Source: Escherichia phage vB_EcoM-Sa45lw. Taken from it: DNA of 64,000 nt. Under the pieces are notes generated by a model, which was not told where the DNA came from, made no database searches, and was given only the letters and a program-made list of their open reading frames with translations. This document shows, piece by piece, positions 31,929 to 43,365 of the stretch (the stretch's first letter is position 1; the number at the start of each line of letters is the position of its first letter). Location: the sequence record MK977694.1; one strand, written 5' to 3'. Position numbers and translations under genes: made by a program.

Positions 31929-33516
<1,588 letters not shown>

Positions 33517-33543
33517 AATAAAATGGGCCTTGCGGCCCACTCC

Positions 33544-34722
33544 TTAAAAGTATTTTTTAAAACTCATCATAACTTTATCATCAACATCATTATCAATCTG
33601 TGCAACAAGATAAGATGACAGTTCTACTTCTTGCGGCGCGGATTGAACATTATCAGAATTAAGGTATTCACGAATCCAAGGATATGGATGTTTAACCGGA
33701 GCATCGGTAATCGGGCATGGAAGACCACACTGTTTCATACGAGATACAGTTAAGTAATCAATAAAGCTCCACATGCTATTTGTATTTAATCCAGGAACAT
33801 CGCCATCTTTAAATAAATGAACTGCCCAATCTTTTTCTTGGCGGTTAACTTCCATGAAAATATCAACTGCTTCTTGTTCACACTCTTTGGCAATTTTAAC
33901 CCATTCATCACCATCAGTGCCAAGTTGAAGTTGACGAATAATATATTGGGTGCCTTTAAGGTGAAGCTGCTCATCACGTGCAATGAACTTCATAATCTTG
34001 GCATTACCTTCCATGATTTCCATGTTCTTATGGAAGTTAAAGGTACATGCGAAAGATACATAAAAACGAATAGCTTCCAATGCGTTGATTACATGCAGAC
34101 AAAGGTAAAGAGAACGCATTAGTTCGTATTTGCATTCTTCTACATGCATAAGGCTATTTGAATATGCGTCCAAATCATATTCATTCTCTGAAAAACACCT
34201 AAAAATTTCTTTTGCGTTTTCCCATTCACGAGTTTTCTCAATAACATCATCATAATAACGACCAATAGATTCAGCACGTTTCATGATAGCTTTATCTAAT
34301 ACAATCTCATCAAATACCTTTGACGGATCAGTATAAAGATTTCGCATAATATGAGTGTATGAACGACTGTGAATAGTTTCACTAAAAGTCCATGTAGCAA
34401 CCCATGTATCAAGGCTTGGATCTGAAATTAATGACATAAGTACAGCAGACGGTGCACGACCCTGAATGCTATCTAAAAGTGATTGATACTTCAGGTTATT
34501 AGTAAAAATATCTTGCTGATACTGGGGAAGCTTGTTAAATTGTGCAGCATCCATCATCAAGTTTACTTCTTCAGGACGCCAGAAAAATGACAATTGCTTT
34601 TCGGTTAAATCTTCAAAAACTTTATGACGTTGAATATCATAACGCGCAATACCAAGACCTGAACCGAAGAACATAGGTTCTTTTAAAACATCAACTGGAT
34701 TTGTATTAAAAACTGTGCTCAT
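33544..34722 (-). CDS. nrdB: Ribonucleotide reductase small subunit, uninterrupted
   Basis: Continuous 392 aa ORF; no intron. Confidence 0.95.
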   Translation of the reverse strand: MSTVFNTNPVDVLKEPMFFGSGLGIARYDIQRHKVFEDLTEKQLSFFWRPEEVNLMMDAAQFNKLPQYQQDIFTNNLKYQSLLDSIQGRAPSAVLMSLISDPSLDTWVATWTFSETIHSRSYTHIMRNLYTDPSKVFDEIVLDKAIMKRAESIGRYYDDVIEKTREWENAKEIFRCFSENEYDLDAYSNSLMHVEECKYELMRSLYLCLHVINALEAIRFYVSFACTFNFHKNMEIMEGNAKIMKFIARDEQLHLKGTQYIIRQLQLGTDGDEWVKIAKECEQEAVDIFMEVNRQEKDWAVHLFKDGDVPGLNTNSMWSFIDYLTVSRMKQCGLPCPITDAPVKHPYPWIREYLNSDNVQSAPQEVELSSYLVAQIDNDVDDKVMMSFKKYF

Positions 34723-34773
34723 AAATTTTCCGCTTAGTTAATAGATAGTGACTCGTCCGTGAGTCAAATTATA

Positions 34774-37038
34774 TCATAATTTACAGGATGAACAATCTTC
34801 AGCTTTTGGAGTTTCTATTTCATAATCATCAGTACCAGAACCGTCACGGGTATTATGATAATAGAAATTTTTTCCGCCAAAATACCAAAAATACAAAAGG
34901 TCATCAATCATTATTGACATTGGAACCTTTCCTTTTGGAAAAATCTGTGGGTCATAATATGTATTCGCTGAAGCTGATTGACATACCCATTTCAGCATAA
35001 TAGCTACCTGCGTAAGATAAGGTTTATTACCTTTCTTAGCTAATTTCCATGTATAATCATATAGGTCTATGTTATGTTCAATATTGGGCACGACTTGATT
35101 AAAGGAACCCTCTTTTGATTCTTTAACAGAGACTGGTCCACGTGGAGGCTCGATACCGTTTGTACTGTTAGAAACTTGGGAAGATGACTCACATGGCATA
35201 AGTGCTGATAGTGTGCTATTACGGATGCCAAAGAGCTTAAGGTCTTCCCGCAGCGACGACCAGTCACAAACGTATTTTGGAGCTGCGATTTGGTCAATCT
35301 TTTTATTGTACCAGTCGATAGGTAATTCGCCTCGAGACCAACGAGTGTCTGAATAATATTCACAAGGTCCTTTTTCTTTGGCGAGTTTAATGGATGCTTT
35401 AATGAGTCCATACTGTAATCTCTCAAATAGTTCATGTGTTAAATCGTTAGCATCTTCATAAGAAGCAAAGTTACTTGCCAACCAAGCTGCATAGTTAGTA
35501 ACACCTACACCGAGGTTACGACGCTTTTTAGCTTTTTCTGCTTCAGGAACTGGATATCCTTGGTAATCCAAAAGATTATCAAGAGCACGAACCTGGACTT
35601 CTGCCAATTCATTAATTTTATCTTGGTCTTGCCAGTCAAAATTATCTAATACGAATGCAGAGAGAGTACACAATCCAATTTCAGCATCAGGACTATTCAC
35701 ATCATTTGTTGGAATAGCAATTTCACAGCACAAGTTACTCTGACGAATAGGTGCCTTTTCACGAATAAACGGAGTATAGTTATTCGTATTATCAATGAAC
35801 TGTACATAAATCCTTGCTGTTCCTGAGCGTTCAGTCATGAGCAATTCAAATAGTTCACGAGCTTTAATACGCTTTTTACGAATATTAGGGTCTTTTTCTG
35901 CGGCTTCATACAATTCACGGAAACGGTCTTGGTCTTTAAAATAAGAATAATAAAGCTCTCCGCCCATTTCATGGGGACTGAACAAAGTAATGTAATCGTT
36001 CTTTCCGAATCGTTCCATCATCAAATCATTCAGCTGAACACCATAATCCATATGACGAATGCGGTTTTCTTCTACGCCTTTGTTATTTTTCAAAACAAGA
36101 AGATTTTCAACTTCCAAATGCCAAATAGGATAATAAGCAGTAGCAGCGCCGCCACGAATTCCACCCTGTGAGCATGATTTAACAGCAGTCTGAAAATGTT
36201 TCCAAAAAGGAATAACACCAGTATGGCGTACTTCACCCATGCCAATCTTAGAACCTTCAGCACGAATCATACCAACGTTAATACCAATTCCAGCACGTTT
36301 AGAGATATATTCAACAATTGAAGCGGAAGCCTTATTGATAGACTTTAATGAATCACCTGCCTCAATAACAACGCATGAACTAAACTGCCGAGTTGGAGTA
36401 CGGCAACCAGCCATAATAGGAGTTGGTAATGAAATCTGTCGAGTAGATACCGCTTCATAAAAACGGATAACATGTTTTAATCTATCAGCAGGTTCATCTT
36501 GATGCAATGCCATTCCAATAGTCATAAATGCAAACTGTGGAGTTTCATAAATTTGACCAGTGGTTTTATCTTTAACTAGATATTTTTCTTTTAATTGCAT
36601 CGCCCCAGAATAAGTAAATTCCATATCCCGCTCGTGCTTAATTTTTGATTCTAAAAATGTAATTTCTTCTGCTGAATATTTTGACAATAATTCAGGGTCA
36701 TATTTACCTTCATTTACACAGTAAGAAATATGGTCAATAAATGAACGTGGTTCATACTGCCCATAAACATGCTTACGAAGAGCAAACATTAAACAGCGTG
36801 CAGCTACATATTGATAATCAGGTTCTTCAACCGAAATAGAATTCGCAGCGGCCTTAATGACAATAGTCTGAATATCATCAGTTGTCATTCCATCACGGAG
36901 ATAAGATTTAATATTTTCATATAATTCATAAGGATCTACTGATGTTCCTTCAGCTGCCCAAGATAAAACTTTAATAATTTTTTGTGGGTCAAAGCTCTGA
37001 GAAACACCACTACTTTTGATAACATTAATTAATTGCAT
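34774..37038 (-). CDS. nrdA: Ribonucleotide reductase large subunit
   Basis: 754 aa; active-site NLCCEI; ATP-cone N-terminus. Confidence 0.97.
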   Translation of the reverse strand: MQLINVIKSSGVSQSFDPQKIIKVLSWAAEGTSVDPYELYENIKSYLRDGMTTDDIQTIVIKAAANSISVEEPDYQYVAARCLMFALRKHVYGQYEPRSFIDHISYCVNEGKYDPELLSKYSAEEITFLESKIKHERDMEFTYSGAMQLKEKYLVKDKTTGQIYETPQFAFMTIGMALHQDEPADRLKHVIRFYEAVSTRQISLPTPIMAGCRTPTRQFSSCVVIEAGDSLKSINKASASIVEYISKRAGIGINVGMIRAEGSKIGMGEVRHTGVIPFWKHFQTAVKSCSQGGIRGGAATAYYPIWHLEVENLLVLKNNKGVEENRIRHMDYGVQLNDLMMERFGKNDYITLFSPHEMGGELYYSYFKDQDRFRELYEAAEKDPNIRKKRIKARELFELLMTERSGTARIYVQFIDNTNNYTPFIREKAPIRQSNLCCEIAIPTNDVNSPDAEIGLCTLSAFVLDNFDWQDQDKINELAEVQVRALDNLLDYQGYPVPEAEKAKKRRNLGVGVTNYAAWLASNFASYEDANDLTHELFERLQYGLIKASIKLAKEKGPCEYYSDTRWSRGELPIDWYNKKIDQIAAPKYVCDWSSLREDLKLFGIRNSTLSALMPCESSSQVSNSTNGIEPPRGPVSVKESKEGSFNQVVPNIEHNIDLYDYTWKLAKKGNKPYLTQVAIMLKWVCQSASANTYYDPQIFPKGKVPMSIMIDDLLYFWYFGGKNFYYHNTRDGSGTDDYEIETPKAEDCSSCKL

Positions 37039-37355
37039 AAGTCCTCAACTTGAAAATCGTCTTTAAACAATCGGTTAACTATATGAGCTATTATATCACC
37101 ATGACACGGCTTTGGTTTACATGTGCATCCTAGCCTCATTCCACGTAAAGGCTCTAAATGTGCTTTAGTTATTTCTCCGGATTTAATTCGACGTATAAAA
37201 TCTTTTTTGAATAATTCAATGGCAGCCTCCCGGCTGCCAGCATCTTTACCGACGTAATTTCCCCAAAATGTACCACGGTGAATATTAACATCAAAGTCGG
37301 ATTTATATTTATTCACTACTCGGCATATACGGCCTGCGCGGTTGTAAGTGTTCAT
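37029..37355 (-). CDS. Hypothetical protein (nrdA.1 position)
   Basis: 108 aa ORF. Confidence 0.55.
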
Positions 37356-37572
37356 ATTGTTCTTCCGTTAAAACAGTAATATCGTAGTAACAGTCAGAAG
37401 AAGTTTTAACTGTGGAAATTTTATTATCAAAATACTCACGAGTCATTTTATGAGTATAATATTTTTTGCCATAAATGATAATAGGCTGATTTGGTCCTGG
37501 AACTTCTAACTCACTTGGATTAGGAAGTGTAAAAAGAACTACACCAGAAGTATCTTTAAATCGTAAAATCAT
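37309..37572 (-). CDS. Hypothetical protein (nrdA.2 position)
   Basis: ATG at 37572 (ORF-track start is TTG); 87 aa. Confidence 0.45.
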
Positions 37573-37592
37573 ATATCCTCGCAATAATAAAA

Positions 37593-38453
37593 TTACACCG
37601 CCATCTTTCCTTTAATAGGAGGATGTGATTCATAGTTGTTAAGAACAAAATTATGAGGCTTTGCAAATTGACTCAACCAAAATACCTGCGATTCTGTGTC
37701 CCATTCATCAAATTCATCTGGAAATTTTAATTGTAATTCGCATAAATCCATAGGTTCACGACATAAAATTTCTTTACATTGTTCTACGTGATTCATATAG
37801 ATATGAGTATTACCACCAGAAAATATCAAATCTCCCGGAATAAGATTACACATCTTAGCTACAATATGAACTAACGTAGCATATGATGCAATATTAAATG
37901 GAAGACCGAGGAAAACATCTACCGAACGTTGATACCACTGAAGGTCAAGGTATCCATTACGCACATTAAACTGATAGAACATATGACAAGGCGGTAATGC
38001 CATATATTTAAGTTCAGCTGGATTCCACGCAGAAACAATTTGACGCCTATCATTTGGCAGTTTTTTAATACGATCAATAACTTCTATAATTTGATCTACA
38101 CCGCCAAAATCACGCCACTGTTTTCCATAAATTGGACCAAGTTCACCGCTATGGTATCCTAAATCTTTTGCTTGATTTTCGTAATTTTCATCCCAGACTG
38201 TTTTGCCTTGAATTAATGAATCATGTTGAATTAATCGCAAATCATTGACATTTGTGCTTCCTGATAAAAACCATATTAGCTCAGCAATGCATGCATTCCA
38301 GGCGAGCTTTTTAGTTGTTACTGCAGGAAAACCTTTGGTTAAATCCCAACGCAATTTAGTACCGAACAAAGCAATTGTTCCTGTACCCGTTCGGTCATCG
38401 GTTTCATAGCCATTTTCAAAAATGTCTTTAATTAAATCTTGGTATTGTTTCAT
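37593..38453 (-). CDS. td: Thymidylate synthase, uninterrupted
   Basis: Continuous 286 aa ORF with active-site LPPCH; no intron. Confidence 0.97.
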
Positions 38454-38498
38454 TTAGTACCTTATATAAATTATAATACATTTTATGAAGCTAAATAA

Positions 38499-38846
38499 TC
38501 AATACGGTTTAGCATCAAATTTTCTCTCAATTTCAGGCGTGAAATATAATTCTTTACCGCGTTTGGAAAAGCGACCAATAATATGATAATTATTCTCATC
38601 AAACGTGATATTACCAATATCCATAGCTTTCAACCAAATATCGATATTTCTATCCAGCTTTATGTCAAAATTCCAATACGGAGAACTATTACCGAAAATA
38701 CTACAAGCGGATTCAGTGAAACAACTGCTATAAATCTTGTCTTTAGGAACTACTAATTGATAGACACCTTTAATAAACTGAGGACCCTGCCACTTTGGCT
38801 GTTTCTCATCTTTTTCTAATAGAATAGGGTAATAATTAAAATTCAT
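38499..38846 (-). CDS. Hypothetical protein inserted between frd and td
   Basis: 115 aa ORF MNFNYYPILLEKDEKQPKW...; no recognisable motif. Confidence 0.6.
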   Translation of the reverse strand: MNFNYYPILLEKDEKQPKWQGPQFIKGVYQLVVPKDKIYSSCFTESACSIFGNSSPYWNFDIKLDRNIDIWLKAMDIGNITFDENNYHIIGRFSKRGKELYFTPEIERKFDAKPY

Positions 38847-38865
38847 ATTTCCGCCACGCGTTATT

Positions 38866-39824
<959 letters not shown>

Positions 39825-39877
39825 TTTTTAAAGCATTGCATAATAGAATTCATCATTCATAAACTCAAATACAAAAA

Positions 39878-40237
39878 TTATATTATCTCCCATCGAAAAG
39901 GGTCAGGAGCATATCCGATAGAATTAATCATTTTAACTAAAGTTACCATTCCTTTGTTAACTGCTTGTGCGATTTCATCAAAAACTTCATCGCTATCATC
40001 ATAAAGGTCATTAAAAAGTTCTAACACGTTCTTCTGAACTTTTAATTTACAGCCAACAAATTCGCCTACAGTAAATTCGTTTCCGCCAACTCCAGCGTAA
40101 AACGTAATTACACCAGTTAATGGTCTTTCACTAGAACATAGGTCGTGTGATAAATTAATATAAGCCGTCCCGGGTGCAGTTTTAAGTTGGCAACGAATAC
40201 TTACTCGAGCAATTCCAGCTACACGAATGTCAGACAT
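39878..40237 (-). CDS. Hypothetical protein (frd.2 position)
   Basis: 119 aa ORF. Confidence 0.55.
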   Translation of the reverse strand: MSDIRVAGIARVSIRCQLKTAPGTAYINLSHDLCSSERPLTGVITFYAGVGGNEFTVGEFVGCKLKVQKNVLELFNDLYDDSDEVFDEIAQAVNKGMVTLVKMINSIGYAPDPFRWEII

Positions 40238-41703: not shown

Positions 41704-42612
41704 TTAAAGGTCATTCAAAAGGTCATCCAGGTCCGTGTCATCAGCACTAGATGAACTGCCAGAGCTTGAGCTCATAAAATCATCTTCAGTTTTTGTATTG
41801 AAGTCATCAACATTGAATGCATCCAAATCATCAGCAACTTTATCAGCTTTCTTAGCAGCAGTTGCAGCGGCACCGCCCATCACAGCAGTTCCCATAACTT
41901 GACCGAATTTAGTATTCAGTTCTTCAAACGATTTGAATTTATCTTTAGAAGTCATTTCAGAAAGGTCAACCATTTGTTCGAACAGTTCTTTCTGGAAAGA
42001 TTCATCGTCAATGTTTGGAATCGCAGATTGATTCAGGAATTTAGATTCGTCGTAGTTACTAAAACCAGAAACTTGTTTAACTTTCAGTACAAAGTTAGCA
42101 CCTTCCCACGGACAAGTTACATCAACCGGAGTTTCACCCATTTCAACATCAACTGCAATCATTGCATTGATTTTATCCCAGATTTTCTTACCGAAACGAT
42201 ATTTAAATACTTTACCTTCGTTTTCTGGAGCAGCTGGATCTTTTACAACAAGAATGTTAGCCCAGTAAGAAGTTTTACGTTTAACAAGACCGTACTCTTT
42301 ATTGTCAGTGTTGTACAAATCATTTTTACTGATGTACTGACATACTGGGCAAGAATCGTAATCACCGTGGGTAGATGAACAGTTTTCAATATACCATTTA
42401 CCATTTTTCTTGAAACCGTGATTTACAAGAATTGCGAATGGTGCTTGTTCATCATTTTTAGACGGAAGAAAACGAATTACTGCTTGACCGTTACCCGCAT
42501 TGTCGAGTTTCAGTTTCCACTCGCCTTTATCTTCAGAAGAAAAACCACCTTTATTTCCAGCCAGTTTAGCCATTTGCGCAGCGAGTTCAGCAGTAGATTT
42601 ACGTTTAAACAT
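41704..42612 (-). CDS. 32: Single-stranded DNA-binding protein gp32
   Basis: 302 aa; zinc site [14 protein letters not shown]; acidic C-terminal tail. Confidence 0.97.
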
Positions 42613-42711
42613 TTTTATTTCCTTTTTAATTTAATTAACAGTTGGTGCTATGACGATGTATGACCTCATAGCTGGTCAGTGAGATAATTATAATCTATTT
42701 ATAATAAGCAA

Positions 42712-43365
42712 TTAATACTTGCAAGATTTCACAGTTTCAATAAAAACTTTTTTAGCTTCCTGTGAATCGATATTTAAAATTTTTCTATAAGCTTTTAACT
42801 TTATAGAATAATTGTTCCAAACTAAATTATCAGTTTGTTCATCATGTTTATCAATTATATTTAAAAACGAATCAAGCAAGATAAACGTCTCAAACGAAAT
42901 TATGTTCGATTGCAGAAGTTTAAAAATATAACTTGATTGAACTTTTGGATTATATTCAAAAATTTCTTTAAAAGCAGAAACTTCAACTTTTTTACTAAAA
43001 TAATAAATGTTGCGAATATCTTCTTCAAACTTAAATTTAATTTGCTTTAAGCGTCCGATATATTCACGATAAAACACAAGTGCATCAGCGTCAGAGATGT
43101 CGCCAATCCAAGCATCTTGGTTAGCAACCAAATTACTTATAAAGATTAAAGCAAGTTCCTTTAATTTATATTTTTCTGATAACTTCTGGAAAAAATACTT
43201 ATCCCTTCGCTTTTGATAAGCGGCATCAGACACCCGCATGCACCAATTATACTTAATAACATCATACTTTCCATTCATATGTTGTTTTATCATTAAGTAT
43301 AATTTATAAACTGATTTACCATCAATGTATCTTTCACCACCAGCAGGCATGCGGAGTTTAATCAT
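42712..43365 (-). CDS. 59: Helicase loader gp59
   Basis: 217 aa, T4 gp59 length and position. Confidence 0.9.
   Translation of the reverse strand: MIKLRMPAGGERYIDGKSVYKLYLMIKQHMNGKYDVIKYNWCMRVSDAAYQKRRDKYFFQKLSEKYKLKELALIFISNLVANQDAWIGDISDADALVFYREYIGRLKQIKFKFEEDIRNIYYFSKKVEVSAFKEIFEYNPKVQSSYIFKLLQSNIISFETFILLDSFLNIIDKHDEQTDNLVWNNYSIKLKAYRKILNIDSQEAKKVFIETVKSCKY

Follow-up and report, generated by a model that had tools for sequence, protein, structure and literature searches.

Introns of td, nrdB and nrdD are scattered patchily among the T-even phages, a pattern known since the late 1980s, and phage T2 is the standard intron-free recipient and the classical one in T4 × T2 crosses. Papers of 1987–1989 reportedly described both the variable occurrence of T-even introns and their mobility into intron-free relatives, and a 2004 survey by Sandegren and Sjoberg is said to have charted intron occurrence in T-even phages. 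Here we compare with these systems a 64-kb window of Escherichia phage vB_EcoM-Sa45lw (MK977694.1; the window is the whole stretch of DNA analysed), concentrating on the minus-strand genes of segment 33544-38453, whose exact ends are the stop of nrdB, encoding the ribonucleotide reductase (RNR) small subunit, and the start of td, encoding thymidylate synthase (TS). Sequence comparison makes it very probable, at roughly 0.9, that td and nrdB in this phage are ordinary, functional, intron-free alleles of a T2/wV7-type Tequatrovirus, in a segment that is also without the free-standing endonuclease gene mobE. A further reading of the segment as a recipient for introns and mobE is plausible. The intron-free state itself is already known, and nothing at this locus departs from the published picture.

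T4 is an oddity in its homing endonuclease load (PMC2988022); endonuclease genes are unevenly spread even among its closest relatives, and free-standing endonuclease genes outnumber introns (PMC2988022, PMC2993671). In crosses, T4 homing endonucleases exclude the markers of T2 (PMC2988022, PMC2790892), and when T4 is crossed with T2 it is the neighbouring endonuclease MobE that acts in trans to mobilise the nrdB intron of T4 (PMC2790892). In our T4 reference record (NC_000866), td and nrdB are annotated as joined coding sequences. A first-pass annotation of the window, made from the letters alone, had stated that both T4 genes are interrupted by introns carrying I-TevI and I-TevIII; the record agrees, giving I-TevI as a GIY-YIG and I-TevIII as an H-N-H enzyme, and it marks T4 I-TevIII as defective. 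T4 and the window have orthologous genes with exon identities of 94% (td exon 1) and 97% (nrdB exon 2), but T4 has in addition a td intron of 1017 nt, an nrdB intron of 598 nt, and mobE with nrdB.1. T2 (AP018813) resembles the window in its 286-aa td and 392-aa nrdB products, its lack of introns and of mobE, the 115-aa open reading frame (ORF) between frd and td, and the absence of segG between genes 32 and 59; it lies one nucleotide from the window in each of the MobE nicking region and the nrdB insertion site. By contrast, T2 shows four silent differences at the I-TevI site, another -49 to -37 block in td and only about 55% identity over td nt 701-861. Phages wV7, RB51 and RB68 (HM997020, FJ839693, KM607004) share the gene order of the window and are identical to it from -60 to +30 at the td site, whereas wV7 differs at the nrdB insertion site (-8A, -5T, -2G) and in blocks of nrdB. 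Site positions here and below are counted from the intron insertion point.

Alignment with T4 shows directly that both introns are absent. In blastn comparison with the T4 gene, window td nt 1-549 matches T4 nt 1-549 (94.0%, exon 1) and nt 550-861 matches T4 nt 1567-1878; the two halves abut in the window where T4 has 1017 nt between them, and thus the T4 td intron is missing. Likewise, window nrdB nt 1-674 matches T4 nt 1-662 and nt 677-1179 matches T4 nt 1263-1765 (97.4%), parts that abut where T4 has 598 nt between them, so the T4 nrdB intron is missing as well. Spliced T4 td and nrdB align end to end with the window genes. This colinearity, together with the ORF list, confirms the first-pass statement that td (286 aa) and nrdB (392 aa) are single continuous ORFs. 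The td insertion point falls between nt 549 and 550 (window 37905 and 37904), between Gly-183 and Leu-184, where the window reads TTCCTCGGT followed immediately by CTTCCATTT; the nrdB insertion point falls between nt 676 and 677 (T4 nt 664 and 665; window 34047 and 34046), inside the Cys-226 codon, where TCTTTCGCAT runs straight into GTACCTTTAA. Each lies in the same codon as in T4. The first-pass annotation had proposed a nucleotide alignment with T4 as the way to examine these positions; in that alignment both insertion points are empty, and no group I intron was found at either. Searches of the 64 kb by blastn and tblastn with the T4 td intron, the T4 and Bas43 nrdB introns, mobE/nrdB.1, I-TevI, I-TevIII and MobE returned matches at chance level only (best E 0.011 for nucleotide and 0.44 for protein queries), with no similarity to mobE anywhere in the window.

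A negative Rfam scan of the window was discarded, because Rfam likewise comes up empty on intron-containing loci of T4 and Bas43: at the gathering threshold, Rfam 15 reports no group I intron in either (L001 and L006, respectively). The td and nrdB introns missed in this way both have ORF insertions. Since Rfam overlooks known td and nrdB introns, a negative scan cannot exclude introns of this kind, and the proof lies in the alignment. One could also suppose that the introns exist in the phage and vanished from its record through assembly collapse or templating on a related intron-free genome. We regard such an artefact as scarcely credible, given that dozens of independently sequenced relatives share exactly this uninterrupted layout within a single alignment piece and that the junctions are in frame and carry lineage-specific silent variants.

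The td product covers positions 1-266 of the 266-position Thymidylat_synt profile (Pfam), has the catalytic PCH motif at residue 155 and is colinear with T4 TS, which identifies it as the T4 td orthologue of the thymidylate synthase family. NrdB scores 126.6 bits against a curated Pfam cut-off of 33.6, is colinear with T4 NrdB and retains the FFWRPEE-coding block, the tryptophan block of the protein, as expected of a class Ia RNR small subunit orthologous to T4 nrdB. An NrdB of 392 aa is found in the window, T2, wV7, Isf-Pm2, ECO4 and Bas43, and one of 388 aa in T4; just upstream of the intron site, nrdB nt 490-600 (34233-34123) is strongly divergent from T4 and includes a 4-residue insertion. 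In td, a replaced block at nt 701-861 (37753-37593) encodes the C-terminal part of TS, roughly residues 232-270, and starts about 140-155 nt downstream of the intron site; its DNA is 55-57% identical to T4 and T2, and 93-100% identical to wV7, Isf-Pm2, ECO4, G2540 and Bas43.

Intron-free td and nrdB are common among T4 relatives, with nothing unusual in the present case. A coverage of at least 80% over 33000-39500 is reached by 510 GenBank phage records, and the same threshold applied to the introns gives 197 records for the T4 td intron and 118 for the nrdB intron. In 200 records the 121 bp that span the td insertion site form one contiguous stretch, and most others split exactly at the insertion point; identity bands of such short BLAST queries mix full and partial matches, and exact junction matches were counted among the best rows of one query. 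Among diverse td loci from IMG/VR, a collection poor in Tequatroviruses that served as a broad survey of the site and not as a population sample of close relatives, an intron occupies the td site in only 3 of 75 (L040, L043, L072).

The cleavage motif of I-TevI is intact in td. The enzyme cuts at -23/-25, within CAACG (PMC2988022), is described as sequence-tolerant and depends critically on bases C1 and G5 of its motif CNNNG (PMC5009752); in the window CAACG occupies -27 to -23 (37931-37927). Across the homing-site region (-27 to +18), seven bases of the window depart from T4 (-22, -19, -6, -4, +3, +6, +18) and four from T2 (-22, -19, -7, -4), all of them silently, and T2 and T4 differ from each other at seven. 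Within the primary binding region of about 20 bp (-10 to +10) there are four differences from T4 (-6, -4, +3, +6) and two from T2 (-7, -4). Further upstream, the -49 to -37 block is a haplotype common to the window, wV7, Isf-Pm2 and G2540 and not shared by T4, T2, ECO4 or Bas43.

At the nrdB site, positions -31 to -6 and +1 to +25 are identical to T4, and the window differs only at -5 (C) and -2 (A); T2 differs from T4 at -2 only. One report (PMC1865063) places the I-TevIII cut at -14/-16 and describes active I-TevIII in RB3-type introns. The first-pass annotation had suggested inspecting the insertion sites for intact homing-site sequence, and the outcome is divided: CAACG and the nrdB cut region are kept, but the td site as a whole departs from T4 at its seven silent positions. 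A second target lies near the start of nrdB. MobE nicks T2 nrdB in codon 42, a codon that is AAG in all phages without mobE, and is thought to bind the FFWRPEE-coding block (PMC2790892). Taking as marks of a MobE target an AAG at codon 42, the T2-type polymorphic block at nt 114-131, the FFWRPEE block and the lack of mobE (PMC2790892), we find in the window AAG, the T2-type block, the FFWRPEE block and a 51-bp nrdA–nrdB spacer without mobE. Over nrdB nt 100-160 the window departs from T2 at a single base, nt 129, and from T4 and ECO4, both of which carry mobE, at 13-14 bases. Window nrdB is accordingly predicted, from its sequence, to be MobE-sensitive. Between nrdA and nrdB, T4 has mobE and nrdB.1 and ECO4 has a gene for a 232-aa HNH endonuclease, whereas the window has 51 bp only. 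The ECO4 gene (L005 2220-2918) is an uninterrupted ORF whose product begins with the same residues as T4 MobE, and in the T4 record mobE (141 aa) and nrdB.1 (83 aa) share the corresponding space (L001 5717-6417) between them. ECO4 nrdB has a T4-type 5′ end, a pattern suggestive of co-conversion or self-immunity.

The first-pass view of this phage as an intron-minus recipient thus gains support in silico from the intact CAACG, the T4-identical nrdB -31 to -6, the T2-type MobE region and the invaded relatives described below. Several observations weigh on the other side. The td site is identical to neither characterised substrate, T4 or T2; -19G occurs in neither, and -22T and -4C are third variants. 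In nrdB, the stretch from the I-TevIII cut to the insertion site contains -5C and -2A, by which it differs from the T4 delta-intron substrate used in vitro. Moreover, because T4 I-TevIII is defective, an nrdB intron donated by T4 would depend on MobE alone for its movement.

Natural relatives appear to show intron invasion of exons of the window type, in support of the recipient reading. Three td intron carriers, G2540, G2133 and PTE-Eco15, have an exon 1 equal to that of the window from -57 to -7, including -22T and -19G; compared base by base, G2540 differs from the window only at -58, -6, -4, +3 and +6, with donor-type -6T, -4G, +3A and +6G beside the intron. Isf-Pm2 and about 20 further td intron genomes combine the window-type -49 to -37 block with donor-type bases from -22 onward, and hence switch from window-type to donor-type at the I-TevI cut site. 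For nrdB, Bas43 (TadeuszReichstein) has a 1089-nt intron with a 229-aa I-TevIII in window-like exons (-32 to -44 and the MobE region), with donor-type -5T and -2G. In all seven intron-bearing td alleles examined (L040, L043 and L072 from IMG/VR, with L001, L004, L005 and L087), exon bases -6 to -1 are complementary to the guide sequence of their own intron: TTGGGT faces GCCTGA in T4, Isf-Pm2, ECO4, G2540 and L040, TTGGGT faces GCCTGG in L043, and TTAGGT faces GCCTAG in L072, a naturally occurring compensatory change by which the P1 register is fixed. Duplex energies computed between exon 1 and the 5′ end of the intron RNA were set aside as no test of P1, the program having chosen other registers (CCUC with GAGG). 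Intron-free td alleles use any Leu and Gly codons at -6 to -1, with Leu written CTC in the window, CTT in T2 and TTA or CTG elsewhere. Positions -6 and -4 fall in the interval from the I-TevI cut to the insertion site, and every invaded allele examined has donor-type bases there, as co-conversion predicts.

The silent differences from T4 are concentrated around the empty td site: td nt 1-699 holds 41 differences, of which 14 lie within 70 nt (37884-37953, td nt 501-570), a clustering matched in only 8 of 20,000 permutations. This concentration could be taken to mean that -22T, -19G, -6C and -4C were selected against I-TevI binding or cleavage or against intron splicing, leaving a poor recipient; in the same direction, -6C and -4C, if kept, would break two of the six P1 pairs. 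We nonetheless think such resistance improbable. The critical C1 and G5 are kept in front of a sequence-tolerant enzyme, T2 serves as an experimental recipient although it is equally far from T4 (seven positions), and -22T and -19G persist in the three intron-bearing genomes named above. The roughly 20 additional invaded genomes with the window-type upstream block stand against about 40 intron-free genomes with the exact 121-bp site (an estimate from an evenly spaced sample), which makes the invaded share on this background similar to the overall intron frequency. Positions -6 and -4, for their part, are donor-type wherever an invaded allele was seen, and raised exon polymorphism beside mobile introns is an already described phenomenon (PMC5378118). 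The diversity hot-spot and the exon/guide covariation repeat known principles in a fresh data set. That the window allele is partly homing-resistant or splice-incompatible and has been kept by selection against intron invasion seems very unlikely; if true, its marks would be the Leu codon CTC at -6/-4 together with -22T and -19G, and the cluster would record an arms race between phage and intron, not just past gene conversion.

The empty sites could alternatively be secondary. An ancestor may have had either intron or both and then undergone precise loss, for instance through recombination with a relative that lacked them, so that the sites would represent a late stage of the homing-endonuclease cycle and not never-invaded DNA, a history compatible with present-day intron-free, functional alleles. 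The td exon-2 flank from +1 to +61 is 100% identical to many intron-bearing phages, the region is a mosaic whose haplotype blocks are common to intron-plus and intron-minus genomes, and the silent differences cluster at the insertion site, all of which would fit such a loss. A simple precise deletion would, however, leave the P1-compatible TTGGGT behind, with which the window bases at -6 and -4 do not agree, and invasion of some members of an intron-free lineage explains the pattern equally. We consider secondary loss unlikely, if still worth bearing in mind.

Reading td and nrdB as ordinary intron-free alleles that may act as recipients leads to a specific course of events. Because the target sequences are present, co-infection with an element-carrying phage would be expected to cause cutting or nicking followed by repair. 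The predicted breaks are an I-TevI cut in td at -23/-25, a cut in nrdB at -14/-16 by an intact I-TevIII of the RB3 type, and a MobE nick around codon 42 of nrdB. Repair by recombination with the donor genome would thereafter introduce the intron or the endonuclease gene, and adjacent exon bases would be converted along with it, including the last six bases of exon 1, which are needed for P1 pairing with the guide and for splicing. The finding carries little weight alone. Its practical side is the prediction that the td-nrdA-nrdB segment would be overwritten in co-infection with endonuclease-rich T4-like phages, which is relevant to phage cocktails and engineered crosses.

Coordinates of the td–nrdB segment, its neighbours and its predicted homing targets are collected in Table 1. 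The length of nrdA equals that of T4 nrdA. Over 33000-39500 the window is 98.6% identical to wV7 and 98.4% to RB51 and RB68, each in one alignment piece, whereas outside the segment the best matches are Sf23 for 1-24000 (98.0%) and the UFV phages, KIT03 and wV7 for 40000-64000 (96.6-97.4%). No GenBank phage record in the collection is identical to the window, and the best match changes along it; judged by these comparisons, the window is a mosaic Tequatrovirus in a well-sampled group.

Table 1. Features of the td–nrdB region in the vB_EcoM-Sa45lw window (minus strand; site positions relative to the intron insertion point).
Feature	Coordinates	Strand	Remarks
frd	39447-38866	-	ORF list; dihydrofolate reductase by Pfam
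115-aa ORF	38846-38499	-	between frd and td
td, thymidylate synthase, 286 aa	38453-37593	-	one ATG-started ORF; Pfam PF00303 E=3.9e-94
Empty td intron site, I-TevI homing-site region -27 to +18	37931-37887	-	CAACGTTCGGTAGATGTTTTCCTCGGT followed by CTTCCATTTAATATTGCA
nrdA.2 homologue	37584-37309	-	Pfam DUF5496 E=3.1e-54; position as in T4, wV7
nrdA.1 homologue	37355-37029	-	Pfam DUF4326 E=5.5e-22; position as in T4, wV7
nrdA, RNR large subunit, 754 aa, uninterrupted	37038-34774	-	Pfam ATP-cone, Ribonuc_red_lgN, Ribonuc_red_lgC
nrdA-nrdB spacer, 51 bp, without gene	34773-34723	-	
nrdB, RNR small subunit, 392 aa	34722-33544	-	one ATG-started ORF; Pfam PF00268 E=1.6e-36
T2-type MobE nicking region, nrdB nt 114-156 (predicted target)	34609-34567	-	TTTAACCGAAAAGCAATTGTCATTTTTCTGGCGTCCTGAAGAA; codon 42 = AAG; FFWRPEE-coding block
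Empty nrdB intron site -31 to +25	34077-34022	-	I-TevIII cut positions -14/-16
denA	33540-33106	-	GIY-YIG domain (Pfam)
rnlA	33089-31929	-	T4 Rnl1 domains (Pfam)

The 115-aa ORF upstream of td is absent in T4, where frd and td overlap, and is present in T2, wV7, Isf-Pm2, ECO4 and Bas43. Its counterpart in MZ501106 bears a "putative" homing endonuclease label; the ORF gave no Pfam match and belongs to PHROG 1928, of unknown function, and we did not count it as an endonuclease gene. At 41704-43365, gene 32 (302 aa) and gene 59 (217 aa) lie about 100 bp apart, so the free-standing endonuclease gene segG of T4 is absent there, as in T2. Between frd and frd.1, two minus-strand ORFs of 126 aa (PHROG 8592) and 119 aa occupy 39444-40237 and are missing from the T4 record; in the annotation of wV7, the ORF set beside frd is likened to phage JS98.

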